From: Dictyostelium discoideum
Lineage: Eukaryota
Assembly: GCA_000004695.1 (NCBI GenBank)
Contig: CM000154.2
Span: 1,664,001-1,728,000, forward strand
Length of the DNA stretch: 64,000 nt
Direction of reading: 5' to 3'
The position numbers and the translations under genes are program-made. Positions 5,968-50,213 of this stretch are shown one piece after another. Positions within the stretch are counted from its first letter, which is position 1. Every line of letters begins with the position of its first letter. The notes beneath the pieces are model-generated. The model saw nothing but the letters and a program-made list of their open reading frames with translations, ran no database searches and had not been told where the DNA came from.

Positions 5968-8900
5968 ATGATAATAATAAATAAAAATAATGATAAGAAA
6001 TCATTGTTTTTATTATTGGTATCATTGATTTTTGTATTATTTGTATCAAATGTCATAGCAGATACAGATTATGCAATATCACCTGTATCACTTTTATTAC
6101 CATATAGTACATCAAAATATAGAAAACCATATAAATTAGAAGCAAATAAAGGTTGTTTCGAATGGATCAATACAAATCCAGATTTGGTCGAAATCACACC
6201 ACTCTATGAATCAGCAGCATCATGTTCACCATCTTCAAATGATAAACAGCAAAATATTGGAGCACCAGATTTATCACTTTGGGACAATTCACTCAATCAA
6301 CCAAATAAAAAATGTTCAAAAGCTGTTTTAGTATCTGTTAGATCAGGTACTGTTTCCGAAAGAAATTCAGCTTTCATTTATGCAGAAGAACAAGGTATGT
6401 TTTTTTTTTTTTTTTAATTATTATTTCATTATTTTAACTATGCACAAAAATACTTACACTCCTCAATATTATTTCTTTTTTTATTTTTTATTTTTTATTT
6501 TTTTTATTTTAAAAAAGTTACTGGTAAAAAATTACAATGTGAAGTATTTGTTGATAGAATTTCATCAATTGTTATTGAAACAACAACTAAAACAATGTAT
6601 AAGGATGATTTAGAAGAATTACATGTTAGAGCATATGATTCAGTTGGTAATGTATTCTCATCAATCATTGGTTTAGAGTTTGAATGGTCAATTACCTCTG
6701 GTAATATCATTCAAATTGTACCATTTAGAGGATTCCCATTGGATGATGTCGCATTAAAAATGGAACAAGAATCATTGCAAACCTCATTTGTATTAGTTCA
6801 AGGTGTTGATACTGGTCGTACTGAAATCAATACAAAATTAACTGAACCAACCTATAAAGATATTCAACATTCAACAACAATTTCAATTCTTGAACCACTT
6901 CAATTAAATCCATCTTATCTTTTATACGTTATTCCAGGTACTCAAATTCAATATCAATTATTAACAAAGAAAAGAAATATTTTAGAAAGTAAGTTTAAAA
7001 AAAATATTATTAAATTTTATTAATATTTTTATTAATTATTATTATTATTATCATCATCATCATCATCATTATTATTAAAAGATATACCATTACCAAATCC
7101 AAATTATATTTGGTCATCAAGTAATTCAAAAGTTGGTAAAGTTGATAATTCAGGTAATTTTATGGCATTGGATTTAGGTAGAACAGATTTAAAGGTACAA
7201 CATAAGAATATGAGTGATAATAAGGTACAAGCATTTGTAAATGTTGTTCATCCATCTTATTTAGCAATAAAGATTGAGCCATTAAAATCTGGATTAGGTC
7301 CAGTTTCAAATTGGAATTTAATTGAAAATAGAGATTATATCCTCGTCGTTGAACTTTATGATGCATCTGGTCATAAAATTCATAGTTCAGAGATTACATT
7401 TGATTTAAATATTCCAACTGAATATTTTGAACGTTTACCATCTTCTCAAATTCCACCAAATACTCCAAAAAGATCTGATACTTTTTATTTAAAAGCTATT
7501 AAACAAGGTTTAGTTGCATTAAAAGCATCTTTGGTTAAAGTTTATGTAAGTTGTATATTTTATTTTATATTAAATATTATTATGTAAATTAATTTTTTTT
7601 TTTTTATTTTTTTTATTTAAGGATTTAAATTTAAAGAAATATACACAATTATTAAATCCAATTAGTGTTGAACAAGAAGTTACAATTCATTCTCAAATTC
7701 AATTAAGTCCACCAATTGTTTATTTACCATATTTACCAAATCATAGACAATATTCAATGATTAGACCAATAGGTGGATCAGGTGAATATAATTGGTATAC
7801 AAATAACTCTGCAATTGTTACAGTTGACCCAACCGGTGCAATTACAAGTCAAACCAGTAGTGGTCAAACAGAGGTAATCGTTGTAGATAAAAAGAATCCA
7901 CATAATAGAGATAAAGTATTGGTTATTGTTTTACAACCTGATGAAATCATTATCACTCCATCACAAGTTGAAGTTCAAGTTGGTCAAACCTTAAAATTAT
8001 CAACTCAATTATTATCAAAACAATTATCAAAAGGTGTTCATTTCGATAGTTGTAATTTAGATGATTTAGAATGGAGAGTTGATGATTCAAATGCCAACAA
8101 TGATAATAATGGTGGTGGTGGTAGCAATCAAGAGAGATCATTCTCATTATTACCATTACAAAAAACAAATACACCAAAGAAAGAACAACCAGATCTTTGT
8201 TCAACTCGTGAATTTTTAGCTATAAAAGAAGGTTCAAACGTTATTTCAGTATCATATATGGGTATGAGAGCAAAAATTTTAATCTTTGCTTATCCACCAT
8301 TAAAGAGTGATCAAAGTGAAATCTTGTTAACATTGGGTTCAACATTAAATGTTTTCTTTAGTGGTGGTCCAGAACCATGGCATTTGGAAAGAAAGAGTCA
8401 TTTCCAATCAATTGTTTCAAATTTAACCAATGAACAAAATGTACTTTCAATCGTACCAGGTAATGGTAATTCATTCCGTGTCACTTGTCTTACTCATACA
8501 AATCCTTCAAAACCAATTGGTATCGAATTAACCATTGGTAATAAAGTAACCACTACCAATCCATATCCAGCTAGTCCATCAATTACAATTCCATACTCTT
8601 GTCGTCCCCCAGCTTCAATTCAATTACAAGTTGCCAATTTACCAAAAGATCATCAAATTCAAGATTCTTCACATCATCAACAAATACAACAACAAGAACA
8701 ACAACAACAACAACAACAACAGCAATCAACTTGTCAAGATACAATTTTCTCAATTAAAAAACAAAAACAAGGTGAAATTGGTACTTATAAAATTCGTAAT
8801 GATCGTGATATTCCATTTATCGCACAAGTTTTCGATGATAATGGTAAACCATTCACAAACTATAGTTCATTGGTTTTCGATTGGAAATCATCAGATCAAA

Positions 8901-11900
8901 CTCAAGCTAAATGGTTAAGAGATTATAATCAAAATGATCATCTTTCAACTTTATCATTAAGTAAAGAACAAGGTAAAGTTATAATTACAGTTTCAATTCT
9001 TGGTTATGATCAAGAGTTATTAAGACAAAACAAAATTCGTTCTTCAGATTTGGATACAAGTAAATTGGTTTCATCATTAGAACTTCATTTATTATCAAGT
9101 GTTGTTTTATTCCCAGACTATTATACAATGTATTTAAATGATAAAAATCATTTAAAGATTGAAGCAATTGGTGGTAGTAAAAACTTTGCTTTTACCTCAA
9201 ATAATAGTAAGATTGCATCACTTTCTTATCAACCAAATTCTGATTTCGTTACTGTAATTCCAAATCAACAAGGTTATCTTAAAGTTGAAGTTAGAGATAT
9301 TTGTTTAGGTAGTGATAATAATAAAGATCAACAACAACAATATCAACAAAAACAACAAAAACATCAACAACAACAACAATCAAATACATCACCAAGTATT
9401 GTTCAAATTAGTGAAGTACATTCAATTGAATTGGATGTTCAAGATATGGTTCAAGTTGGTGATTCAATTAATTTAATTGTTAAAGGTTTTTCACAAAATG
9501 GTCAACAATTCGATAGTACTCAATATCAATATATGAATATCATTCCACATATTGATAATCCAAATGTTTTATCAATGACTCAATCATCTGATAGCCAAGT
9601 TTTCACATTAAAAGGTTTAGATCAAGGTTTAGTCACTTTATCAGTAACCATTCAAAATCCAAAGACTTCATTCAGTGCCACATCAAAAACCATTCAAATT
9701 CAAGTATTCCCACCATTCCGTGTTTCACCAAGTGTTTTACATTTAGTACCAGGTGGTCATTTCCAAATCCATTGGACTGGTGGAGCACCAATTCGTCAAG
9801 ATGTATCATTTGTCTCATCAGATCCTTCAATTGTAAACTTGAGTGGTCGTGAAGATTTAGTTGGTGAATTGGTTGCATTAAAAGTTGGTGAGGCTACAAT
9901 CAAAGCCATCGCTCAAATCGTCGATCCAATCACTGGTAAAAAAACTATAATTGGAGAAGATAAATTAATGGTTTACGTTAAGAATATGACTGGTATTAGA
10001 ATTCATAGTAGTATTAATAAGATCCTCGTTGGTAATGAAGCCAAATTACGTGTTGTTGGTGCAAATGGTGAAACTCCATTCACATATGGTACCGTTGATT
10101 TATTCTTCAAATGGGAATGTTTAGATAGTAACATTGCAACCTTATTACCAATTTATGAACGTGCCAATACAACCGTTGAAGCCGAAGGTTCATTCAGTGT
10201 TCGTGTAATGGGTAAGAATGCAGGTTCAACCTCTATTACAGTTTGGGCCTATAGTGGTGGTGATAAAACTAAACATTTATTCCAAGCTGCTTCACTTCAA
10301 ATTAATGTAATTCCTGATATTCCAATTCAAACTACATCACTTCTTTTACCATTGAATACACCATCATCATTTATTGTCAATAATCATTTAGACAAGACTG
10401 GTATCGAATTCTACCCATTAATGGATGGTCATGGTAGTTCATCATGTAAGGATGTAATTGACATTGGTGATAATAAGATTGTAAGTTTGGATAAGATTGG
10501 TACTTGTTATGTTAGTGCCGTTAGAGATGGTCGTATGGATACAAGTAAACTCTTTAAGATCAATTCAAAACCATTCTCACATTTAGAATTACTTCCAATC
10601 AATCCAACTTCAACAGTTATTCCAATTGGTGGATCAATGTCATTTGCAATCTATTTACGTGATGATATTGGTGAGGTATTCACAGAGTATGGTTCAAGTG
10701 CTATCTTTAGTAGTGAAGTTAGTAACACTGGTATCATCTCTTCCTCAATCGATGCAAATGTTGTAACCATTAAAGGTATTCGTGCAGGTTTAGTTACTCT
10801 TCATGTCTACCTTAAAGATATGCCACATTTGGATGATTATATCAAGATTTTCGTTGGCCGTTTAGTTGAACCACATCAACCAATTCTTCATGTCGGCTCA
10901 ATGATTACCTTTTCAATTGCCAAAGATCAATTGGAACAAAGAGGTTTCTCCTTACCAAGTTCCGATGAAAAGGTTTGGTCATCCGGTGACCCATCTATTT
11001 TACAAGTTGACCCAATCACTGGTAAAGCAACCGCTATCGCTGCTGGTACAACCACCATTAATTACATTAGAAATCCATCATCTCAAACTCAAGTTGTCAT
11101 ATCTAAAATTGGAAGAATTAAGGTTGACTTTTCCGATCAAATCATTAATAACTCAAAGAAGAGATATGAATACAATTTGAAATTCTTTACTGCTGGCTCT
11201 GACATTGAATTATCTCAAGATTCAACCATTGATCAAAATATTAAAGGTATTTGTACAATTAAAGAATCTACATTTGCAACTGCATTCTTTGAAAAGGTTA
11301 AGGGAAAAGAACAATATCGTTGTGTTGTTCAGCCATCTGGTGTCGCTACCTCTTCAATTGATAAAGTTACTTTGTATGTTGAAGTTTCAAACGCTCATAA
11401 AACTTATCAATATGATACAACCATTAATCTTCCATTCGAATCAACCTTTTCAATTATCAACGTTAGAGATAATAAGATTCAACTTTCACCACGTCAATCC
11501 ACTTTTATCTTGAATATTCAATCATCAAGTCCAATCTTTGTTGAATCATCAGATAATTCATTATTATCAGTACAACAAATTAGTTCAAGTGGTGGTGATG
11601 ATCAATTAAATAATTTATATAAATATGCAATTCAACCAATGAGTGTTTCAACTAGTTTCCAAAATGTTCCATTGTTAATTAGTAGTGCTGATGGTAAGAG
11701 TAAAACAACTGTCACTGTCTCCTATTCAAAGAGTGGTTCAACTACTAGTGATCAAAATACAAGCTATGTTGAATCTTCAACCATTAATTCTCATCCATTC
11801 TTATTCTCTTTCATCATTATCGTTGGCACTCTTTTAATTGGTTTATATGCTTCAAAGAAACATAATGATAAACCAAGAGTTTACATTAATCCAAATTCAA

Positions 11901-12010
11901 ATCTTCAAACAAGTTCAATCTCTTCTCCATATAGAACTCCACCACCACATTCATTCACTTCACCAAATAGATCCACTTATGGTTCTTCAAGTATATATTT
12001 AAATAATTAA
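5968..12010 (+). CDS. Nuclear pore membrane glycoprotein gp210 (Nup210)-like protein, about 1916 aa, 4 exons: 5968..6394, 6518..6988, 7082..7545 and 7622..12010
   Basis: It has an N-terminal signal peptide (MIIINKNNDKKSLFLLLVSLIFVLFVSNVIA). A very long beta-rich luminal region has Ig-like repeats. A single TM helix lies near the C terminus (PFLFSFIIIVGTLLIGLYA), followed by a short tail of about 60 aa. This is the gp210 topology and size. Three introns have GTATGT/GTAAGT donors and AG acceptors, and the phases were checked against ORFs 5968, 6595, 7162 and 7757. Exon lengths sum to 5751 nt (1917 codons including the stop). A poly-Q tract sits at about 8680-8720. Confidence 0.65.
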
Positions 12011-17660: not shown

Positions 17661-19962
17661 TTACATAATTAATGATTTACATTTTGATTTATAATTTTTT
17701 GAATCAAAATTTAAAGTATCCTTAAAATAAGTTATTAAAAATCTATGATTACAATCTAATGCTAAAGTTACTAAAATTTCAATTAATGGTTGAGCAAGAG
17801 ATGACAATAATGAATAAGTTGATTTTATATATTGAAATACTTTTAATTGAGAATATAGAGTTGATAAATATAATAATCTTTCAATGAATTGACTTTGATT
17901 GGAATTTATAATTAAATCTATACCTTTTGTATCACATTTACAAACGATATCATCCACAATTAATTCATGATCATTCACAGAGATACCGCCAATACTTGTA
18001 TTTGGGATCACTGAAATGTTTGGTGAATTGTAAAATAGTTTACCAGTTTCGTAATAGTTGAATAGTAGTAATGATCTTTGAATACCGTGTTTAAAAATTA
18101 CAAATAGTTTCTTTGGATTTCTAATTATTGATTGAACATATGATATTCTAGTTTCGACAGATTCATCTCTTTTCTTAAATACATGAGGTAGTAATTGCTT
18201 TTGGAATTTTTCTTTAAAATCATCAATATTCTCTACTAAAAAGTTTACTGCCTCAAGAGTAATACTTGAATAACCATTTTTTGTTTTTGTTTCCATTGAG
18301 TTTTGTGGTATTTTTAATTCAAATTTATCTAATCTTAATTTATATTCAATTGGATAATTTATTTTTAAATGGTTTAATAAATCAACTCTTTTAGTGAATA
18401 AAATTCTTAAAATATTATCATTAAGTAAACTATTATTAATATTTGATTTTAAATTTTCAATTAAAAAATTAAATAATTGTAATTCATTTTCTTTTTCGCC
18501 ACAACAATATTTATTATAATTATTATTATTATTATTATTATCATCTGTTTGTTGATTTGGATTGATTGAATAAAATAGGTAATCTTCTTCAATTGGTTGT
18601 AATTTCATTTCGTAATTCTTTAAAAACCATTGAACTAATTGAATATCTGAATTTAAATTTAAAAGAGTTTTAAAGTAATGTTTAATTGTGAATGAACGAC
18701 CACCACCACCAATACCACCACCAGAAATACTTCCATAATCTTTTAAATATTGAATTTGTCTATTTAATCTACCACTACAAAATCTAAATAAAATCGTTTC
18801 AACCTCTTTATGAATCATTTCATCTAAAATTCTTGAATAGAATCTATCTTCTTTAACTTTATTATAACCATTTTGTTCTAATGTTACACATTTATACATT
18901 AATAAATAAAATGAATAATTTTGAATATAATCTTCATCTCCAAAAAATGGTAATAACATTTTAATAATTCTTTCAACATTTTTTTCAAATATAAAATTAT
19001 TATTATTATTATTATTACTACTACTATTATTACAACCTAATTTAAATTTAAATAAAATTGTTGATAATTGATCTTGAGTAAATTTATTCTTTATTTCATT
19101 AATTTCTAATAATGATAAAGTTTCAAAAGTTTCATCTTGATAACTTTCTAAAAATTTATAAAATTTAATATCTTGAACTTCTTCATAATTAATTTTATAT
19201 TTTGATTCATTTTCTTGTTTTGATTTTGAATCTGAATTAATCTTTTTTAAAATTTTCAATTTTCTTAATTCCCAAATTTGATTTAAATTATTTTTATTTT
19301 TTAAATTTAAACCTAATGATGCGATTGTAATACATGAATCTATTAATGTTTCTAATGTTTCATTATAAATAAAATAATCTAATTTATAATAAAATATTGG
19401 TTGTGCTGATGGTGATGTTGATGATGGTAATAATAAATTTGGTGTTGATACTAAATTAATTGGAATTTCAAATTTTAATTGATTAACTAAAAATTTAAAA
19501 ATTTTATTATTATCTAAACCACTACTACTACTAGTACTATTAATATTATTATTATTATTATCTCCACTACCAATTTCAATATTATTAATATTACTATTAC
19601 TATTAATATTACAATCAATTGTTTGTTTCCAAATTTCTAATTGATTAATTTTATTTTTAATATTATTACTATTACTAAAAAAATGATTAAATAAATAATT
19701 TGAAATTTTAAATGCTTTTAATTTAATTGATTTAATTAAATATTTCTCTTTCACTTTAAATAAATTAAATGATTCAACTAAACTTGAAAATGCATAAATA
19801 TTATCATATTGTAAAAATAAATTTATAATTTCTTTTAATATTNNNNNNNNNNNNNNNNNNNNNNNNNNNNNNNNNNNNNNNNNNNNNNNNNNNNNNNNNN
19901 NNNNNNNNNNNNNNNNNNNNNNNNNNNNNNNNNNNNNNNNNNCATTATTAGTTATTGATAGT

Positions 19963-20024
<62 letters not shown>

Positions 20025-20237
20025 TTGATTATTTATATTTGAAAATGATAAATCTCTTCTTTTTTCAATTAAAATTTTTTCTTTTAAAATTGTATAAAAT
20101 TTATTTTTAATCATCCACTCTACATTATTAACTTGATCATATGAATAAACTTTATATCTAAAAGAAACCTTTAAGTGTGATAATATTTTTTTTTTTAAAA
20201 ATATATTTCTAAAAACTTTCCAAAATAATTCTTCCAT
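17661..20237 (-). CDS. Hypothetical protein (about 858 aa, single ORF) interrupted by an assembly gap. Poly-N tracts. No recognisable domain.
   Basis: Long minus-strand ORF with Dictyostelium-like codon usage. The X residues correspond to the N gap at 19843-19942, so the true length is uncertain. Confidence 0.5.
19843..19942. other. Assembly gap (100 N) inside a coding region
   Basis: Literal n characters. Confidence 0.99.
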
Positions 20238-22089: not shown

Positions 22090-22866
22090 AGGTATGTATT
22101 TAAAGATGGTCAACATATTTTAACAGGTGATTCACTTGGTAAATTAAAAGTTTGGGATTCAAGAAAAGGTAATAAGATTAATTTTCCAGAATCATTTCAT
22201 TATGATGGATGTGTTGATGGATTGGCAGGTAGTTTTTCAAATTCAGCAAACAATGCATTGGTTGACGGTTCACCATTTGAAATCGGTCCAGAGAATAGAC
22301 CAATCAGTGGTATTACAATGTCATCAAGAAGTGGTGGTAGTGGTGAAGATGATGGAAGATTTTTAGCAGTCAATAGTTATGATAATGTAATTAGAGTTTA
22401 TGATCGTTCAAAAGTATCCATTGTATCACATCCATATTCTTTGGCACCAATGAGTTTAATTCATTCATTAACTGGTCATAAAAATAAGAATTGGCCAATT
22501 AAAAGTAGCATTTATGTTGGTAAAGATTATAATCAAGATAGTGTAGTCAAGAGAACTTTAGGTGTTGGTAAATCAATGAATGACGGTTCAAAATCAATCA
22601 TAGATGATGACGATGACGATGATGATGATGAACAACCTGATATTAATCAATCGGTTTTATTAGCTACTGGTTCTGCAGATTACAATGCTTACATCTACGA
22701 TATTGGTTTTGGTAAACAATCTGGTAAAGTCTTACAAAAGTTAGAAGGTCACACCGATAGAGTTTACTCTGTTAAATTTCATCCTTCAGAACCAATTTTA
22801 GCTTCCTGTTCTGCTGATAATACAATAAGATTTTGGACTCCAAAGAAAAAAATATTTAATAATTAA
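21010..22866 (+). CDS. WD40-repeat protein with an N-terminal coiled-coil (WDR37-like architecture), about 549 aa. Three exons: 21010..21483, 21594..21994 and 22092..22866.
   Basis: Exon 1 has a poly-Gly tract and a coiled-coil. WD repeats include GHNASVYTVDFSPCGKMLASGSFDKTVKVWDV, SGSYDKTVKLWDL, GHTDRVYSVKFHPSEPILASCSADNTIRFW. The introns (GTATAT...AAG and GTAAAT...TAG) preserve the frame and were verified against ORFs 21642 and 22222. Confidence 0.65.
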
Positions 22867-23074
22867 AAATAATAATAATAAAAAAAACAATAATAATAAT
22901 AATAAATATATTAATAAAAATATTACTTGTATAAGAAATAAGTTTTTTATTTATTCTTTTTTTATTCTTTTTTTTTTTTATTAAACCCTAAATTATAATT
23001 GCATTGATATACTATTGAGAGATGGAGTTTTTAAATCTATTGTTTTTAATCTTTTGGAGTTTTAAAACGGTGAA

Positions 23075-25320
23075 TTAAATTTCCAAAAAAAAAGAACCAT
23101 CAATATTATCTTTATGGTATATAAGAATTTCTTTGTAATTTGGGAATCCTTCATTCTTTATTTGGTAATTTGAAATGATTATTTGTATAATAATTGATTT
23201 GGTATATTTTTTACACATTTTTTGATATGTTTTATATATATTTGAAACAATATCTTTAGTTATATATTTACCACTATTGGTATAATATGTTTTGATAACT
23301 ACCATTAAATTAGTTTTTGAATTATCACTTGAGCTTTCAAGTTTAAAATTTAATCTAATTTCGAAAATGGTGCAATCATCGCACAATAAAGAAATATAAC
23401 CTGGCTCTTCGATTGCAATGGTTTTTCTAGCCTAATCTAAAATATAAATAAATAATAAATACCAAAAATTAAATCCAAACCAATTAAATTAAATTATATA
23501 CATACCCATAAAACAAATTTGAACTATCCTTAACTAAATATAATTGTTTAAATTTAATCATTATATCATTATCATCAATAATATCTCCAAAAATATCTTT
23601 AAGATTTACAATTATTGATTTGTATTTTTGTAATAAATCATTTTTTAAAATTATTATTATTGATGTTATATATTCGAATGAAAATCTTACAAATTTATTG
23701 TCAGGTGGATATCGTGTAATAGTGGATAAATAATCCATTGGTAACCTTGTTGCTATTAAATTCAAATCAACAGTAGGAATTATAATATTGAAAAAACCTG
23801 AATTTGAATTTTGGACAAGATAAATATGTCCCGATTTTGAAATCTCTTTAATTATATTACCAGAAATTACTATTTCCCAACTAACTTCAACACCGCAAAC
23901 GATATGGTATAGCAAGCATTCCAATGTATTCCAATTATATTCAAATTTCTTATTTCTAATTTTGGTTTTAAGCTTTGAACAAGCGACCTATATTAATTTA
24001 TTTGGAAATGTACCATTTTTTGTTTTATCATTATTATTATTTTTGTATAATTTAATATATTTAATTAATTTTTGTAAATATCTTGGTACAACACCAAGGT
24101 TCTTTAAAATAATGTCAAATAAATCATGTTGCAATTCTTCTATTTCACAATTAAGTTTTGAACATATGATCTACTTTGAAGATTGAAGAGACAATATGTT
24201 GATACTGATGTTTTCAAAATCCCATTTCAATAATTCAATATCAGTTGGTCCTGGATTGGTTCCTGTTAAAAATGGAATTATAAATATATTGGTTTCGTCT
24301 GCGAATGATTTATTTCGATTGCATCTGAAAAAACCCAAAAGTTCAACCATTTCTTTTATAAATTCTGGTTTTTTATAATTTTTTGTGCATTGTTCATGGG
24401 CTATTTGAAATTCATCCAAATGTAATAATATCGCAATAGAATTATAATAATTGGTTCTATGCTTTGATGCTATGAAATTAAATGTTTGTTTTAAAAGAAT
24501 TTAAATGATTTTCGTTTGATGATAATTTATCAATTAAATCTGATGTCTGCAAAGAACATCCTAAAATGGATCTTGAGAATAATCTTTTACATAAACCTAT
24601 CTCTGGTGAGTATTTAATATCTTCTTCTATCACTTTGTCACCACCATTGAAATCTATCTTTAAATATATACAGTTTTTCATTAAACAATTAAACGAGTGG
24701 CTTTCTTTTCCTAATGATTCAATATATTTCAAACATTCAATACCCAATCTGGTTTTACCTATTCCTTTACCAGTTAAACAAGTTAAAAATATATGATCAG
24801 ATCTTGATTTGGATTTATTTTTAAATCAAACATTTTTTCAATATTTCCTGAAATCATTCTGATTGATTTTTCTCTTTCCAAAAATGTAAAATCTTGGTCA
24901 TCATGATATTCTTTGTCCAAATTTTCTTTGATATCTTTTTTAATTATTATTTCTAATTGATCTAAACCTATATTTTTTAATTTAAAAAATTAATTTTTAA
25001 TAACTATTTTAATGTAAATTACCAAATACTTACTTTTAACTTCATTTCTTTCAATTTTTTTATTTTTTATCTCTTCCCACATCTCTTCTAATATTGCGAA
25101 ATATGTTGTATCGAGATATTGATTCTTTGGTAAAATACAATCTCCTCTTACATATTCCAAATTTTTTTTAAAATCTTGAACTTCGGAATTAATTGATTCT
25201 AGGTCACTTTTAAAAAAAACTAACTCACTTCTCTCTGAAAGATTAAACTCTTTATAAATTTGTTTATGTAGGTCACAAAGATAAGTTTCATCATTGGTAT
25301 ATTTAATTCTCTTTGTTTTT
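23075..25320 (-). pseudogene. P-loop NTPase-like gene remnant. It has a Walker A motif (LTGKGIGKTRLG) and is split into at least 5 ORFs by in-frame TAG stops and one frameshift.
   Basis: Minus-strand ORFs 24478..24747 (contains FLTCLTGKGIGKTRLGIECLKY), 24171..24419, 23484..23924 and 23075..23386. The N-terminal part (about 25320 down to 24800) has one canonical GTAAGT...AG intron. The frame 24419 down to 23484 stays open except for two TAG codons, with no intron signals around them. There is no GT/AG across the 24420-24477 break. Confidence 0.4.
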
Positions 25321-25436
25321 AAATAAATTTATAAAAAAAAAAATTAAAATAAAAATAAAAAACGGGAATATAATTCCAATTAATTATTGGTGTGGAAAAA
25401 TTATTAATGTGTAAATGAAATTTTATTTGAAACAAT

Positions 25437-29801: not shown

Positions 29802-32800
29802 TTAATTATTATAATAATCAAAAATATAAGGTGGTACATAACCTTCAACGATTTTTCTAGAAGTATGAGAATATTTACAAAAATCTTCCAAGAATCTAAG
29901 TAAACCAATAACATCTTCAGGATAATCAGCATCATCTTTATTATTTTCTTTTGGATTAGCTAAAGCGATATTGATATGAGATTTAATGTATTGACCAACA
30001 AAAGCTAAAAACTTTTGAGTATGAAGTGAATGGAATTGTTGAAGTATTGTAATACAACCAATGATGAAAGGTGTCCAATCATAGCTATTCTTTTGTTTCT
30101 TTGAAGACATGACATTCAATTTTGAATTGAATTGGAATTTTGAAACTTGAGAGAGTACGAATAAAAACAATAGACATGGGAATTGTTCCAATGGAGAGGT
30201 GGTGATATAGATCTTTGTGAAAGGGTCATTAATACCTGCAGTATCTAAATACTGAGCCAAATCAAACAATAAAGTATTATCATCACTTGGATAAGGATTT
30301 GAATCTGGACGTTGGAAATGAGATTCTATATCATTCAATAATGATTTATTCATGATATCCAATGAAGAGAATAACATATTCGAATCGATTTTACAATGGA
30401 AATTTAATTGATTTGAAATTTGTCTTCTAATTAATTGAATTTGACCAATCTTTGTTAGGACATCAATGAAAATTGGGTAGAGTAACTTTGTTTTATCCAA
30501 TGCTTGTTGATAACGAATCATTGTGTCTGGTATATTGGTGGTTGGACGTAAGTAATCTTCAAATTCATTCAAGAAACCTTTAAGACTTTTCTCAACCAAA
30601 GAACGAGTTTGACTAACGAAAACTTGTAAATCCTTTACCATCATAAAACTAAACAACTTATCCAAACCTGTTAAACCAAAGATACCAACCGATTGATGAA
30701 GAATTGACCAAGTGTTTATACCAACCAATTCTTTACCACTAGATGGATCGAACCAACCAATTTGATTCAAATATAATGTAGTTTTACAATTGGTTTGATT
30801 TAGCAATTCCCTTGCTAAACGACCAATCATATTGACAGATTGTTGAGAATTTTGATCAGATTGTGATGGGAATTTTGGAATTGGAATTGCAACCGATTGA
30901 TATTGTGATTGCCAATCGTATACTTTTTTCTTTAAAAAACTATTACACTCTTGTTCAACGTAGAAATTGACAATACGTGAAAACTCCTCTTGCCAAATCT
31001 TTAGACCTTGAATGTTTACATAATCTTGAATGTATTGGAATGAACGTCTAAAACCATCCAATATATTTGACAACTCTTTTAGACGTTGTAATAATTCAAT
31101 CTCTTGTTGTTGTTGCTTATTGGATGGTGCTTGATATGGTTTACCACTGAAAATCAATGTTTTATCCATTGCCAATGCAATTTGTAATACCAACTCCTTA
31201 CGAATACCATCCTCGAGTAATTGTTTTGGATCGACTTCAATGATACCAACCAATGTTGTCTCCATTGCTAGAATACCCTCAGTGAAAACCGATACTGAAT
31301 GGGTTGCTCTTGCCAAATCGTATCTTTGATCCAATTGAGCGAAATCTCTTAATCTCTCTTTCTCAACTTTTGTTGGCATCTCTTGAATATTATTAGTTTG
31401 CATATTAATGATTTGTTTTAAGATTAAAAACATTTGTTTTGGTACGATTTCCAATACCTTTCTAACATAACCAACCAATTCACCAGAGTAATACTCTGAT
31501 ACCGATATAAGATCGGGTGATGAACATTGAGCGATTCTAACCAATGGTAAATCGAGAATTGATACTAATTTCAAAAAGGTGGCACGAAGTTTTAGTACAC
31601 ATTTTGGATCGGATTTAATACCCTTTTGCATTTGATCGACATAGTTATTAACGATTTCCCATGCATATGACATATCGGCACAAACTGAAAGATTGACCAA
31701 TACCTCCTCTTTGATATTAACGATTTTAATCATTTTAGTTAAAAATTGTCTAGTTTCAATTAAAAATTGTTTCACTTGAATACTTGAATCGATTTGTTGA
31801 AATTGCTCAACCTCTTCCAATGCCAATGAGAGTTGTTGAATTTTTCTACCGGTACTTGTTGAATCGGTAGAATCTAATTGACTAATCTTTTGAGAGATTT
31901 CACCAAACCATTTTTGAAGATTTTCATTCTTTTTCACACGAGTTAACGCTTTCTCACCAGAGAAATACTCTGAGAGTTCAACCATTGAATCTGATGCCAA
32001 CTTTTTATTCTCTTCCCATTTCTCTTCTTTGGTTGCTAATAATTGTTGGAAAATATTCTTAAAAACAAATTCCAATTGTGCTGTATTCAATAGTAGGTAT
32101 AGTACATCCTCTTGTGAACCACCCATCAATACTAAATCCTTAAATTTCTTTTGACTTGCATTACTATGTAACATAACCCAACGAATTGTAACATTACAAC
32201 GACGTAATGTAGTAATGATCTTATGAACATTATCAACAATATACTCTTCAACCAATAATCCATCAACTAATAAATCATCGACCAACTTATTCAATTCACT
32301 AACTTCTTTCCAAAATCTTTGTGTTTGATATTGTATATTCGATTGTATAATAGTATTACCCATTGCTGTCTTTGCTGCTTTATATGGTTCCCATGCAACT
32401 GATAAATCAATTGTAAATCCTAAAAAAAATGATATAACCCAATTATCTGGGAAAAATTTATCAACAATTTCTCTCATTATTGACTTTTTTTTTTATTAAA
32501 ACAAAAAATTAATTTTAATTATTAATTATCAATTATCAATCATTATTATTAAAATAAATGTATATATACTTACATTTTTATTATTTAAAATATCAGGAAT
32601 GAAATATAATATAACATAAATCATACATGCTTGAGTTGATAATGCAACAGATCTATGTTCAGGTTGTGGGAAAGATTCAGTACCATTATAGAGATCATCA
32701 GAACGTAAACGACCAACAATCATTGAAATTACATTCTCTGGTAATTCAACACGTCTAAAATATTCCTCTGGATAATTTGGTGGTTTCTTTGGTGAACCTG

Positions 32801-45021: not shown

Positions 45022-48000
45022 TTAAAATAAGAATAATTCTTTTTTAATACCTTCTCTCTTCCAAGCTGGAATCTTTAACCATTCAGTTCTAGTCATTTTG
45101 AAAACTTTTTCAAAATCTTCATCATTGAGATAAGTATCCAATTTAGTAGAGTCAACGCCAGCAGGTAATGGATCGGCCAATAACTCTTCATAGGTATAGA
45201 TTTCTTTGAGATAATCTTTAAGTACTTGTTCAACTGGGATACCATCTTTTTCAACCAAAGGTAATTTATTCTTTGGATATTTAGAGGTACACCAAGCACG
45301 GAAATAACTTTTGAAACCAATTGGTTCTTCGAATGGAGTTGCAATTAGTACTTTAGTGTGCTCTTTTGAATGACCCAATTTTGAAGTTTCAATAAAGTTT
45401 AATACAACTTCCATAGAGGCACGTTTAGTACGATGAGTTGCACGACTACCAATCCAAAGGTAAATATGACTTTGTACATCCAATATACAAACGGATCCAA
45501 TATCTAGATCATCTTGAGAGAATGGTGATTCCTCTGTAACTTCAACGATACCCGATGCATTACTACAAACAAAGAAACGTGGTTTATAAGTGAATGAGGT
45601 TGGAATTGAACTACTTTGAATCATAATATCATTAAAGTATTTTTGTCTACCACCTGTACTTTCAAAAGCTGACCAAAATTCATTGGATTCACTACCTTCT
45701 TTTAAGATTTCGATTGGAGCTGAAGTGGAATTGAAATTCTCTGCGATTGAGAGAGCAGAGTTTTGTTCAGCATCCAATGAGAATTTACCATGCCAAATGT
45801 AAATCTTTTCAGGAGTACGCAAGATTGAAACATGTAAAGTATTTAACATTGAGCTTGAGAATTCTACTTGAACGGCACGAATATCAATTTTATCTAAACC
45901 TTTAACTTGATAGAGTGATGGTTTCTTTGGATCATAGTTATTGTATTTACCTTTATGAATTACCATTTTGGTTTTGAAAAGATTTAAAAAGTTTTTACAT
46001 TCTTTATTTGCAACTACTCTAGTTTGAACACAAGCACCAACCAATGATTCATTGAGATCAACTGTTAAATAAGCGGAAGTACCTTTTTCATTGATTGAAG
46101 AATCTCTACCTAAATAATAATAGATAACATGAGCTTCCTTATTATTTTGCATATAGGTATAGAGAACGATATAACTATCTGATGAAAAGAATTGAGAATA
46201 TAAATGTTGTGGATGATCAATCTTTTCATAGTCTTCAATTTTCCAAACTTTAACACGACCACCTTCATCAATTGGTATTGTGAATAAGGCTTCATTATCA
46301 ATGAATGGAGTTGTCATACGTGATGCCAATGTTTCAATTTTATGCTCAACCTTTGAGGTTGCAACATGACTTTTAATCTCTTGACGAGTGGTTGAAATTG
46401 GCAACATACCTGGATAATTTGCAAATTTCTCTTTGAAGAGATTATTTTCACCAAATTCGGTTAATCTTGTTATCTTTGTCCAATCTACACGATCTTTTTG
46501 AGCTTGTAATACCAATGCAACTTTAGTTGCCATTTTTCTTTGAATTGATGATGATTCTTTACCAACCCAAACAAAGATTTCAGTGACACAATCAACAACA
46601 TATACAAATTTAGTATTGAGAATTTCTTTATTTGGTAATTTCCAATCAGTACCTTCCCAAGCTAAACGAGCACGTAATGAATTCTTTTTAACATCTAAAC
46701 CAACACGATAAATTGTAGTTTTAATTGATTCAGTATCTTGTTCCTCTGGAGTTGGAGTTGTTGCGATTGGATCGGAACTATTACCACCTAAAATTTCCCA
46801 AAAATCAAATGATTGTTCATCACGACCTTGATCCAATTGAATTAGTGTTGATTTACCACCTCTTTCTTTTGTACGAATTCTATTTGCAAAATCTAATGCC
46901 TTTGCTTTATTGACACGACTTGTTTTTGAACCTGCCCAGACGAAAATTCTTGGACCAGCATCTAAAATAAAAGAGTTATGACAATTCAATGATGATGTTG
47001 ATAATTTAACCATTCTAACTCTAATCTTTCTTTTACCTTTAACTTGAATTAAAATCTTTTGTTTACCATTTTTAATTGCTGTTAAATCCAAATAACGTGT
47101 TAAATCATCAGCTGATGGATCCAATAAATTACCATTACTACCAGATGATGGAATTGATGATGATGATGGTAATGGTGAGAGTACTTCTTTTTCATTGATA
47201 CCGAACATTTTAATGATATCAATTGAACGTTTTCTTGCAGCTTCCAAACCATCGATCCAACGAGTACAATCATCAAATTCTGCTGTTGGTGCGATTGTAC
47301 GGAAATTACAAACTACTTGATTCATTGAATCATATAGAGTGAATTCATTTGGTGAAATCTTTTTAATTAATGAAATTGAAGATAATTGGATTCTGAGCTC
47401 TGGTGTTGTTGATAGTTTATTACGTGATACAAATAAATCCTCTGCTAATAAGGCAACAAAACATTGACCCCACATTGAAAAGATACCAGGTAATTTTCTT
47501 GATAATTGACCTTCCAATGGTTGCTCTTCTTCCTCTTCTTCAACACCCCCTTCATTGGTATTTGATTCGTCATCACTCATTGGTGAACTAATTAATTCAT
47601 CCATTGTTGAAGCTCTTGTTAATACTGATTTTGGTTTAGTTTCACCTGAACTCTTTAGATTTTGACGTAATACTGATAACCATGATCCACGTTCTTCTTT
47701 GGTTTTTGCTAATAAATGAATGATACGATTTGGTGTTGACAATTGGAAACTAAAACCTTGAATTGTGAAAATTTCTTTGGTTTTATGTGCAGAGATTGCT
47801 TTCTCCAAATGAATAGTCTCTAATGGATCCAATTGTTTCAATGATTTATTCTTGTATGAATAAAGCATACCCTCTGAAACTACATACCATTTCTCTGTAT
47901 TTGAATTCCATAATAAACCTGGTATTAATTCTGTTAAATTACCTTCAATTACAATATCACTTTGTTTAATACCTGTACTTGAATTTAATGGAGTTGATGA

Positions 48001-50213
48001 TGTTGAATTGTTTGCTCTTAATGGTGGTGGTGTTGAAGAAGAAGATGTAGTGGTGGTGGTGGTAGTAGTGGTAGTGGTGGTTGATGAAGTTTGAGCAATT
48101 GATAATGGTGATGCAAATGTTGATGGTGGTGTCGATGTTGATGATGATGGTGATGGTTTTGAAAATCCACCTGAACTTTTCAATGATGTATATGATGGAT
48201 TTCTTGATAATACACTATGATGTCTAGTTTGAGTTGGTGTTGATGATTTTGGTGTTGTTGAATTTGGTGATTCGCTACCTTGTTGTTGTTGTTGTTGTTG
48301 TTCTTTTGGTGATGGTACAGAGAATTTTTGTAATGCATTTTTATTTTCAGATATAACCATTGGTGATGGTGCAACAGGTGTTGTATTAACTAAATGAAAT
48401 TCACCCATTGTTGGTGAAACAACAGATTGATCAACTTGTTGTTTCATTTCTCTATAAGCATTAATTGATTGACACCAAGCATCTCTTTGTTTAACAGTTG
48501 AACATTCCATTCTATGTTCTTTTCCATTTAAAAGTATAATATTGAAACGTAAAGACCATTCCTCACCAGAGGTATTTTCATCTTCATCATAAATGTCAAC
48601 ATATTTTATATTTAAGACTGGTGAATCCCAAATTGCTTGAGCAGAATCTTCATTTAAGAAACAATAAATTTTATCTTTTACAATCTTTAAATATCTATTC
48701 TCATAAGAATTAAATAACCAACCTTCAATTTCTTGTTTAACAATACCTTCAGTAATGAATGGTGAATCACCGCCATTACCATCACCATCGCCACCACCAC
48801 CACCACTACCACTATTACCAATTGAAAGTTTTGATAATTGTTCTAATTTATCTTTTTCTTTACTTTTACCACCTTCTTCTTCTGATACTTCATAAATTGA
48901 TTGAACTCCATCTGGTTTCATTGAGATTGTGTGTGGAATAACTTTTAATTGTTTATCAGCGAACCAAAGTGAGCAATCTGTAGTTGGATCACCAGATGGG
49001 CAAGGAGGGAAAATATCTTCTTGGAAAAGTTGTGATTTTCTTGGACACATAAATGAAACCATTTCAACAGAATTTGCAGCAGTTAAACGTAAGAATCTAT
49101 CGATTTCACAAATGTTAACATCGACAACACTCTTTGGTAATAGGGTGATAGCACTTTGAGTGACATTACCAAATGTTGCTTTACCAATATGATGAGCGTT
49201 ATTCTTTTCAATTTCATAATAATAGATACCATCACCTTTACCGCCTAAATAAACCATATTGGTACCGAAATCATAATAAGGTGATAGGATTGAAGAATCG
49301 GTTGTAACATCTTTTGAAACCAATGGTTGTGAAGATTGTAATTGACGTGGATCCCAAAGATATAATTGACGTTGTGCACTTTTATTTGCGCCAACAGTAC
49401 AAATCAATTCTAAACCATTTGAATCAGCCCAACATAATTTAAATCCTTGTGCACCTTCGTGAGTTGATATAGTTTGAATTGGTGTTGATTGACTTCTTGG
49501 ATCGTATAATCTCATTTTCTTATCCCTTGATGAGGTTGCCAACTTGTCACCACCACTCCAAGTATTCCAACCGACAGACATAATCAAATCTTCATGTCCT
49601 GTTAATTTTTGAATCACTGATGATTGTTCACCTGTGCTTGATAAATCCCAAATATCCAATGTATAATCCAATGTTGATGACATAAATAATGAATCCACTG
49701 ATGGATGAAAATAAACACCTGTAACTCTTTTTTGTTGTTTTGGTAATGTAATCAATGGTGTCACTAAATTATCCTTTATCAATCCTTCCTCTGGCACTTC
49801 CCATATCTTTATCGTACAATCTCTACTACCAGTTGCAATAACATAATCATTAAAATTACTAAATTCAAAACATGATATTGGATCTGTATGTCCTTTAATA
49901 CAAAATGGTGTATCTGGTACTTTACCATGATTACTTAATTTTGTAATTGATAAACATGATCCACCTAAATAAATAAAAATAAAATAAAATAAAAATATTA
50001 ATATATTTATTTAATTATTTAATTATTTATTAATACTTTACCACCAATTGAAGAAGGATAAGCAAATAAACTTTTTGAAGATTTTAAAAGTTCTTCAGAT
50101 GCTGAATTAACTTTTAAATTTGTATAAAATAATTCTTTTTTACAAACTTTGCTAAATACATTTCTTACTTTTGATTCCCTTACAATTGATTTTTCAATAC
50201 TTTTATATTCCAT
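45022..50213 (-). CDS. vilA: Villidin: coronin-like WD-repeat N terminus, central PH-like region, gelsolin repeats and a C-terminal villin headpiece. About 1704 aa. Two exons: 50042..50213 and 45022..49964.
   Basis: The N terminus aligns with coronin (…GSCLSITKLSNHGKVPDTPFCIKGHTDPISCFEF…GSRDCTIKIWEVPEEGL…RKSQLFQEDIFPPCPSGDP). A long Ser/Thr-rich linker follows. Gelsolin-type segments are present (e.g. FVYVVDCVTEIFVWVGKESS). The headpiece is …LNDEDFEKVFKMTRTEWLKIPAWKREGIKKELFLF. One intron, G|GTAAAG...atttatttag, with phase checked. The computed 1704 codons match the known Dictyostelium villidin architecture. Confidence 0.88.

Follow-up and report, generated by a model that had tools for sequence, protein, structure and literature searches.

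A probable unitary pseudogene of a STAND-like ATPase underlies the hypothetical protein DDB_G0288561 of Dictyostelium discoideum AX4

We analysed a stretch of 64,000 nucleotides (nt) from chromosome 5 of Dictyostelium discoideum AX4 (the window, whose coordinates are used throughout), with a focus on a minus-strand locus that retains coding potential from about 25330 down to 23046. This locus is very probably a unitary pseudogene, i.e., an unprocessed gene that decayed in situ in the AX4 lineage; the ancestral gene would have encoded an ATPase, and the product of 277 amino acids (aa) assigned to the locus in the reference annotation, DDB_G0288561, would be artefactual. At least seven disabling lesions were found in AX4, both ancestral introns are kept with canonical ends, and sister lineages possess intact orthologues, in agreement with an earlier suggestion that a gene had recently been inactivated here. 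None of the AX4 lesions was found in any other aligned lineage. In its present state the locus cannot make the ATPase. Taken as a pseudogene it is nothing unusual; what makes it valuable is the correction of an annotation and the pointer that it gives to an uncharacterised, fast-evolving family of STAND-like ATPases.

Disabling lesions in the AX4 locus

A three-frame map of the minus strand, on which all features of the locus lie, contained every element listed in a preliminary description made from the sequence alone, namely a fragmented coding locus with a Walker A box and a canonical intron. Between 24500 and 23487 a long frame stays open except for two TAG codons (24173-24171 and 23990-23988), much as had been described. 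The Walker A peptide FLTCLTGKGIGKTRLG is encoded in 24825-24481 in a frame that differs from those of the segments on both sides, and the last coding segment, 23431-23078, occupies the third frame. The base composition (15-33% guanine plus cytosine) and the short, AT-rich introns are consistent with D. discoideum AX4 as the source.

The lesions were located in a five-way DNA alignment of AX4 and four orthologous loci (L001 to L004), read in register with the intact gene of ACTFIW. The first is a deletion of about 415 base pairs (bp), with its junction at 25330-25343, which joins the 3′ flank of the upstream Peptidase_C1 (cathepsin-like) gene, whose stop codon lies at about 25439-25437, to approximately codon 12. 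This removed the intergenic/promoter region along with the ATG and ~12 initial codons (MFSIVVNLVFPN). By BLAST, positions 9619 and 10035 of L001 map to the adjacent window positions 25321 and 25332, and the coding frame that remains has no methionine before residue ~80. The segment 25385-25331 was also considered as a set of degenerate first codons and rejected, as it aligns better (about 82%) to the Peptidase_C1 3′ flank; under either alignment the ATG and about 400 bp upstream are gone. Such a loss of the promoter region would argue against normal transcription. AT-rich microsatellites ((TAA)n and A/T runs) lie on each side of the pseudogene, at 22846-22974 and 25331-25362, and the position of the 5′ junction inside an AT-rich microsatellite suggests that the deletion arose through slippage or microhomology.

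Downstream, a 4-bp deletion (24826-24827) changed the ancestral ATGTTTTATTCATTT to the present ATGTTTGATTT. It is the reason why the Walker A segment is out of frame, a shift that had been recognised before the orthologue alignment located its cause. A 1-bp insertion (A) at 24500-24502 restores the original reading frame. Here, the preliminary description had seen a break without GT...AG borders at 24420-24477; that there is no intron holds, and the position of the break is now refined to the insertion at about 24502. Of the two in-frame TAG codons, the one at 24171-24173 stands where L001, L002 and L004 have TCA and L003 has TTC, and the one at 23988-23990 differs from the GAG of the orthologues by a single G-to-T change. 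Directly after the acceptor of intron 2, a 53-bp deletion (junction 23430/23429) removes the codons for KKLLKSNDVIEVFDDCSL, shifts the frame and creates a further TAG (23429-23427) three codons past the acceptor after normal splicing. Finally, a T-run at 23085-23093 counts nine T vs seven in all orthologues, and this +2 frameshift cuts off the last 14 codons, replacing the conserved tail GNLIHRVKxPKD before the stop by LEI and a stop.

The exon structure around these lesions is still legible. The exon 1 remnant (25034-25330, ancestral codons ~12-110) represents a lineage-specific N-terminal header with the strand ELVFFKS at 25223-25206, and is followed by intron 1 (24968-25033, 66 nt, GTAAGT...ATAG), which is still canonical and whose position is kept in all orthologues. 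The exon 2 remnant (23506-24967), with four of the disabling lesions inside, corresponds to an AAA+/STAND-type NTPase and a helical plus winged-helix region. Intron 2 (23437-23505, 69 nt) has the borders GG/GTATGT...TTTTAG/A, with slashes marking the splice sites, at the same position as in the orthologues, and leads to the exon 3 remnant (23046-23436), a C-terminal nuclease-like module with the ancestral TAA stop at 23048-23046. As the introns are retained, the locus is not a retrocopy. We rejected a shifted intron 2 (TAT/GTATAT...TTAG/GCT) that would keep exon 3 open, since all orthologues use the borders given above; the apparent continuity of exon 3 under this shift results from the 53-bp deletion alone. 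Four features, the ~415-bp deletion, the 53-bp deletion, the +2 T-run and the second intron (23505-23437), had escaped the first reading of the sequence.

As an alternative to gene decay, several sequence errors had been proposed, in which case sequencing or assembly would have broken a gene that is intact in AX4. Two lesions (+1 A and +2 T) do lie in homopolymer runs, where errors are common. An independent contig, L006, from the Logan assembly of the public run SRR28564543, covers window positions 25360-22691 at 99.3% identity and repeats exactly the 5′ junction, the 4-bp deletion, the +1 insertion, both TAG codons and the 53-bp deletion. Moreover, deletions of 415 and 53 bp and the two-base change from TCA to TAG are untypical of sequencing error. 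Since the contig from this other sequencing run carries all major lesions, these are real and common to at least two D. discoideum genomes, and we regard an intact AX4 gene hidden by errors as practically out of the question. L006 differs from the window by five single-nucleotide polymorphisms (in 2.7 kb), the T-run at 23085-23093, which is one base shorter, an A-run that is one base longer, and an 11-bp deletion (23189-23179). The decay of the locus is continuing, and the dead locus is polymorphic within D. discoideum.

The reference gene model and the orthologous loci

An exhaustive search with a profile hidden Markov model (HMM) returned, among the relatives of the ancestral protein, the 277-aa AX4 "hypothetical protein" DDB_G0288561 (P0009; XP_636642.1, EAL63140.1, UniProt Q54IS2). 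Its model spans 22996-24350, with exons at 24350-24174, 23954-23502, 23431-23273 and 23037-22996. Its start is an internal methionine (24350) that lies past both Walker motifs. A 219-nt "intron" (about 24173-23955) holds both TAG codons and the nearly invariant motif DLGxxPR, and all orthologues use this stretch as coding sequence; a 70-nt "intron" (23501-23432) has the borders of intron 2 moved such that the deletion-created TAG is avoided; and a 235-nt "intron" (23272-23038) covers conserved C-terminal strands, after which the final exon adds 14 codons past the ancestral stop. DDB_G0288561 is a gene-prediction artefact built around the lesions of the pseudogene, and the earlier warning that a gene model here needs scrutiny was well founded.

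It could be argued that the locus has been remodelled into a functional gene for the 277-aa or some other short product, with the lesions lying in real introns; a RefSeq/UniProt model does exist, and its junctions can be drawn with GT...AG. Such a gene would need to splice out, as an intron, sequence that is conserved and coding in all orthologues, to skip conserved C-terminal strands and to end beyond the ancestral stop, and its product, beginning past both Walker motifs, would be no ATPase. The promoter region is deleted, the substitutions on the AX4 branch look neutral (see below), and the second strain has suffered its 11-bp deletion within exon 3. We therefore consider a functional short gene improbable and retain the pseudogene. 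No relevant papers turned up in literature searches by DDB_G identifier or UniProt accession. Thus, the reference of a model organism lists a protein (DDB_G0288561, Q54IS2) that almost certainly does not exist, and the locus should be re-annotated as a pseudogene.

Searches with the conceptual translation identified five proteins (P0001-P0005), all from recently deposited Dictyostelium assemblies and all without a Pfam domain. Four of them (P0001-P0004; 693-744 aa, 66-85% identity to the query) are flanked by Peptidase_C1 and WD40 genes as at the window locus, with Bystin and Strumpellin beyond; the shared Peptidase_C1 and WD40 neighbours make them positional orthologues. P0005 (774 aa, 38% identity) is a paralogue at a different locus. 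The orthologues of ACTFIW (744 aa) and ACTFIZ (743 aa) are clean three-exon models with two canonical introns. The models of ACTFIR and ACTFIY require extra "introns" within sequence that is coding in other lineages. In ACTFIR_001632 (693 aa; L002 10001-12375), a +1 frameshift in an A-run inside the Walker A codons and a -1 frameshift in a T-run are placed behind invented introns, one of which drops Walker A, and in ACTFIY_002091 (707 aa; L004 6001-8346) an invented intron covers a 17-bp deletion of its own. These two gene models likewise hide frameshifts. The assemblies of the relatives evidently come from Holland et al. 2025 (PMC12745789), who sequenced wild group-4 isolates at a useful distance to AX4, including "possible cryptic species". 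The choice of such isolates explains why the flanking genes diverge by 2-5%.

The ancestral ATPase and its family

By comparison with these relatives, the ancestral gene would have comprised three exons encoding a cytoplasmic protein of ~744 aa, composed of a lineage-specific header of ~135 residues at the N-terminus, an AAA+ ATPase of the ORC/Cdc6-STAND type that has both Walker boxes (A and B), sensor-1 and a lid of helical and winged-helix elements, and a C-terminal alpha/beta module whose D...QxK pattern resembles a PD-(D/E)xK nuclease. After the split from the ACTFIW/ACTFIR lineage, the AX4 copy lost the promoter and start codon and gained the frameshifts, stops and deletions.

The exhaustive HMM search recovered 168 relatives at E ≤ 1e-3, a family wider than that seen in word-indexed homologue searches, which yielded only the five Dictyostelium proteins. 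It includes a second Dictyostelium paralogue group with DDB_G0278513, an AX4 gene that seems intact and encodes 741 aa with a B-box-like N-terminus, and further relatives from Synstelium, Cavenderia, Arcella, Luapelamoeba, the glomeromycote Ambispora and metagenomes. An alignment of 50 sequences showed variable N-termini and the kept motifs GxGxGK[TS] (Walker A), hhHxDEFQ (Walker B), PxLTGT and DxGxxPR; across these relatives G179, G181, K182 and E296 are nearly invariant and D295 is invariant. All of these motifs can still be traced in AX4. The Walker A/P-loop remnant TGKGIGKT (24751-24774) carries the AX4-specific change M180I at a residue that is invariant among the four close Dictyostelium copies aligned. 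The Walker B remnant LLHLDEF (24408-24428) contains the invariant Asp and the nearly invariant Glu, the sensor-1-like strand IIPFLTGTN (24255-24281) the GT that is nearly invariant across the family, and NLGVVPRY (24078-24101) the nearly invariant Gly of the family form DLGxxPR.

Curated domain libraries do not recognise this family of ~744-aa STAND-like ATPases. The HMM check proposed in the preliminary description gave no match reaching threshold: NACHT, NB-ARC, AAA_16, AAA_22 and Arch_ATPase were without a match in the window translation, P0001, P0003 and P0005. Sub-threshold matches occurred only in distant relatives (AAA_22 in 5 and AAA_16 in 2 of the 50), and the whole-family profile gave only marginal P-loop matches against PDB sequences.

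We modelled the ACTFIW orthologue with AlphaFold2. A run with a four-sequence alignment reached a predicted local distance difference test score (pLDDT) of 33.7 and was not used for fold searches; the rerun with 50 relatives reached a pLDDT of 82.7 and a predicted template modelling score (pTM) of 0.78, with low confidence for residues 1-110. Using Foldseek, the model matched Apaf-1 with an E-value of 7.7e-9, and its predicted alpha/beta ATPase core, helical lid and winged helix superpose on solved members of the ORC/Cdc6-STAND group. The predicted fold thus matches the ORC/Cdc6-STAND class, which includes NB-ARC, CED-4 and Apaf-1; "STAND-like" refers to this modelled fold class only and makes no claim of membership among the NLRs. 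The earlier proposal of a rapidly evolving STAND/NB-ARC-like NTPase holds as regards fold class and fast evolution (see below), with the qualification that the Pfam models for NACHT, NB-ARC and AAA stayed below threshold. No C-terminal repeat sensor (LRR, WD40, TPR or ankyrin) was found by Pfam, and the model has a compact alpha/beta C-terminal module instead.

Structural matches also included TnsC and MuB, which are AAA+ proteins of transposons, and modules of NTPase plus restriction endonuclease (REase) are, in the summary of Zhang et al. 2016 given in PMC5289972, tied to prokaryotic transposable elements. Both points could favour the decayed copy of a mobile element bearing an NTPase and a nuclease over a host gene. 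However, the locus is single-copy within the window, occupies the same syntenic position in five lineages and contains two conserved spliceosomal introns. The sister stem is under purifying selection, and neither terminal repeats nor additional flanking sequence, as judged against the neighbouring genes, appeared in the alignments. A mobile origin is thus very improbable, and we continue to treat the locus as a decayed host gene.

The C-terminal module shows a family-wide pattern in which an hD[GAI]R strand, whose Asp is invariant, precedes hhhhQxK[FH][ST] and then hhhh[IL]TN, and these motifs fall on predicted beta-beta-alpha-beta elements. The layout resembles that of a PD-(D/E)xK nuclease, to which we tentatively assign the module by its sequence pattern. 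Neither Pfam nor PDB gave a significant match; PDDEXK_13 (0.014) and DUF4365 (0.031) were each hit by a single family member. In the exon 3 remnant, the family-invariant Asp has become Glu in FEIRLNF (23365-23345), and VVIKTYYT (23302-23279) has K-T-Y at the Q-x-K position.

Several paralogues and distant relatives were observed in addition. The paralogue ACTFIW_011811 (774 aa, 38% identity, same header; L005 6001-8584) adjoins large ComC_SSD/DUF7035 genes, and no AX4 counterpart was among the proteins surfaced by the family searches. ACTFIY_009173 (341 aa) resembles a fragment of it. In Cavenderia fasciculata, the adjacent genes DFA_01524 and DFA_01525 (P0012 and P0034) encode a header with NTPase (473 aa) and a C-terminal module (134 aa), respectively; together they present the family architecture and are probably one split or damaged gene.

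Evolutionary rate, related systems and neighbouring genes

The focal gene diverges between lineages by 5.7-16% at the DNA level vs 2-6% for the flanking genes. Its pairwise ratio of non-synonymous to synonymous substitution rates (dN/dS) is 0.44-0.61 vs 0.15-0.42 for the neighbour DDB_G0288555, and its dN is ~3.5-fold higher than that of the neighbour even between intact copies. In deep comparisons the dS of the focal gene is also ~2-fold higher (0.26-0.32 vs 0.10-0.13 in DDB_G0288555), for which old allelic lineages, a locally different mutation rate or noise could account. When the two "cf. discoideum" lineages served as outgroups to polarise substitutions, 51 non-synonymous and 14 synonymous changes fell on the AX4 branch (omega ~0.84), which does not differ from neutrality (p = 0.53). 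The stem of ACTFIW and ACTFIR carries 19 and 12, respectively (omega ~0.36), and was under purifying selection (p = 0.009). Among the AX4-specific changes are M180I in the P-loop and D641E at the most conserved residue of the C-terminal module, in its nuclease-like strand. The gene was weakly constrained while alive, and over most of the period after the split its rate in AX4 could not be distinguished from neutrality.

In several respects the locus resembles unitary pseudogenes of fast-evolving genes that act in conflict or immunity, of which the lineage-specific loss of NLR/STAND genes in plants and fungi is an example: close relatives have intact orthologues, several independent lesions accompany retained introns and neutral substitution since inactivation, and at least one independent loss occurred elsewhere (the 17-bp deletion in ACTFIY). 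In contrast to true NLRs, the protein has no repeat-type sensor, and its family is uncharacterised. Several-fold faster evolution than the neighbours and loss in at least two close lineages form a pattern expected of conflict genes, whether the opponents are pathogens, mobile elements or conspecifics. To our knowledge, such genes are poorly charted in social amoebae.

Sequence identity to PAB2304 (PDB 2qen), SSO1545 (2fna), ORC/Cdc6 and NB-ARC/CED-4/Apaf-1 is 11-13%. Archaeal Walker-type/STAND ATPases differ in the N-terminal header and the C-terminal module, and their Pfam models stay below threshold. In Crinklers, P-loop NTPase plus helix-turn-helix (HTH) plus REase is the commonest C-terminal architecture according to Zhang et al. 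2016 as summarised in PMC5289972. The order header, P-loop NTPase, helical/HTH region and nuclease-like D...QxK corresponds to the module described in that summary. Headers likewise vary among members, and the range includes Glomeromycota. The focal header (residues 1-110) is poorly predicted, and the focal orthogroup has a degenerate catalytic triplet. The Crinkler header PF20147 had no match in P0001, P0003 and P0005 at E ≤ 1; in P0043, a distant relative, it scored below threshold (18.2 bits vs the cut-off of 24.6), and the resemblance of ELVFFKS to the LxLFLAK-type strand of the Crinkler header is visual only. In the bacterial Avs3 and Avs4, the nuclease is N-terminal and a large TPR-like sensor C-terminal, whereas the present protein has its nuclease-like module at the C-terminus and lacks a repeat sensor; a search with PADLOC models found no match. 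By analogy of architecture, the family may thus be described as Crinkler-module-like and Avs-like in design, as a member of neither.

By the same analogy to nuclease-fused STAND ATPases (bacterial Avs and Crinkler-type NTPase-HTH-REase modules), the intact protein would most likely have been a nucleotide-dependent switch that oligomerised on binding a ligand and acted on nucleic acid in conflict or defence. Fast evolution, header swapping, patchy distribution and recurrent loss fit a defence role without proving it. More speculatively, the living members (ACTFIW_012467, ACTFIZ_003559, ACTFIW_011811, DDB_G0278513 and others in Amoebozoa and Glomeromycota) might constitute an unrecognised eukaryotic defence or self/non-self system of STAND ATPase and nuclease, an idea that we think doubtful. 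If it were true, the system would be mechanistically parallel to bacterial Avs and Crinkler modules, and its presence would vary among close lineages of social amoebae, with one member lost from the standard laboratory species.

Several observations weigh against parts of this interpretation. The direct contrast between the AX4 branch and the sister stem is marginal (Fisher p = 0.09), and some transcription may persist, e.g., as read-through out of the gene upstream, as may a truncated product. The frameshifts in ACTFIR may be homopolymer-length errors of a Nanopore-based assembly, so that firm evidence for recurrent loss comes from AX4 and ACTFIY only. Neither the conceptual translation nor its intact relatives gave an above-threshold match in Pfam, NCBIfam or PADLOC, and the C-terminal module has no significant match in Pfam or, as a profile, among PDB sequences. 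In the focal orthogroup the Q-x-K triplet is K-T-Y (AX4, ACTFIW, ACTFIR and ACTFIY) or S-T-K (ACTFIZ), and the dN/dS of the C-terminal part is ~0.6-1.0; the degenerate triplet in the intact ACTFIW gene and the high C-terminal dN/dS suggest that the module may already have lacked catalytic activity by the time the gene died. We therefore propose a function for the family only with reserve. Nevertheless, the alignment and the confident structural model provide a starting point for annotating about 170 relatives, and since AX4 is without this member, experiments on the living gene need wild isolates.

Within the window, a scan for bacterial promoters and terminators was uninformative, as expected for a eukaryote (24 sites vs 24.5 in shuffled sequences). 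An exact-product look-up in a gene-position index gave no match for the AX4 models P0007 and P0009 or for the neighbouring open reading frame (ORF). The latter, at 17661-20237 (-), is intronless, encodes 858 aa from its first ATG and is 100% identical to DDB_G0288555; the RefSeq entry of DDB_G0288555 is labelled "partial" and has 726 aa, 85% of the ORF, and this reference model may be truncated. Other long ORFs are found at 7757-12010 (+) with 1417 aa, 45022-49797 (-) with 1591 aa, and 29802-32477 (-) with 891 aa, the last of which falls in a stretch that aligns to the Strumpellin gene of the relatives' loci.

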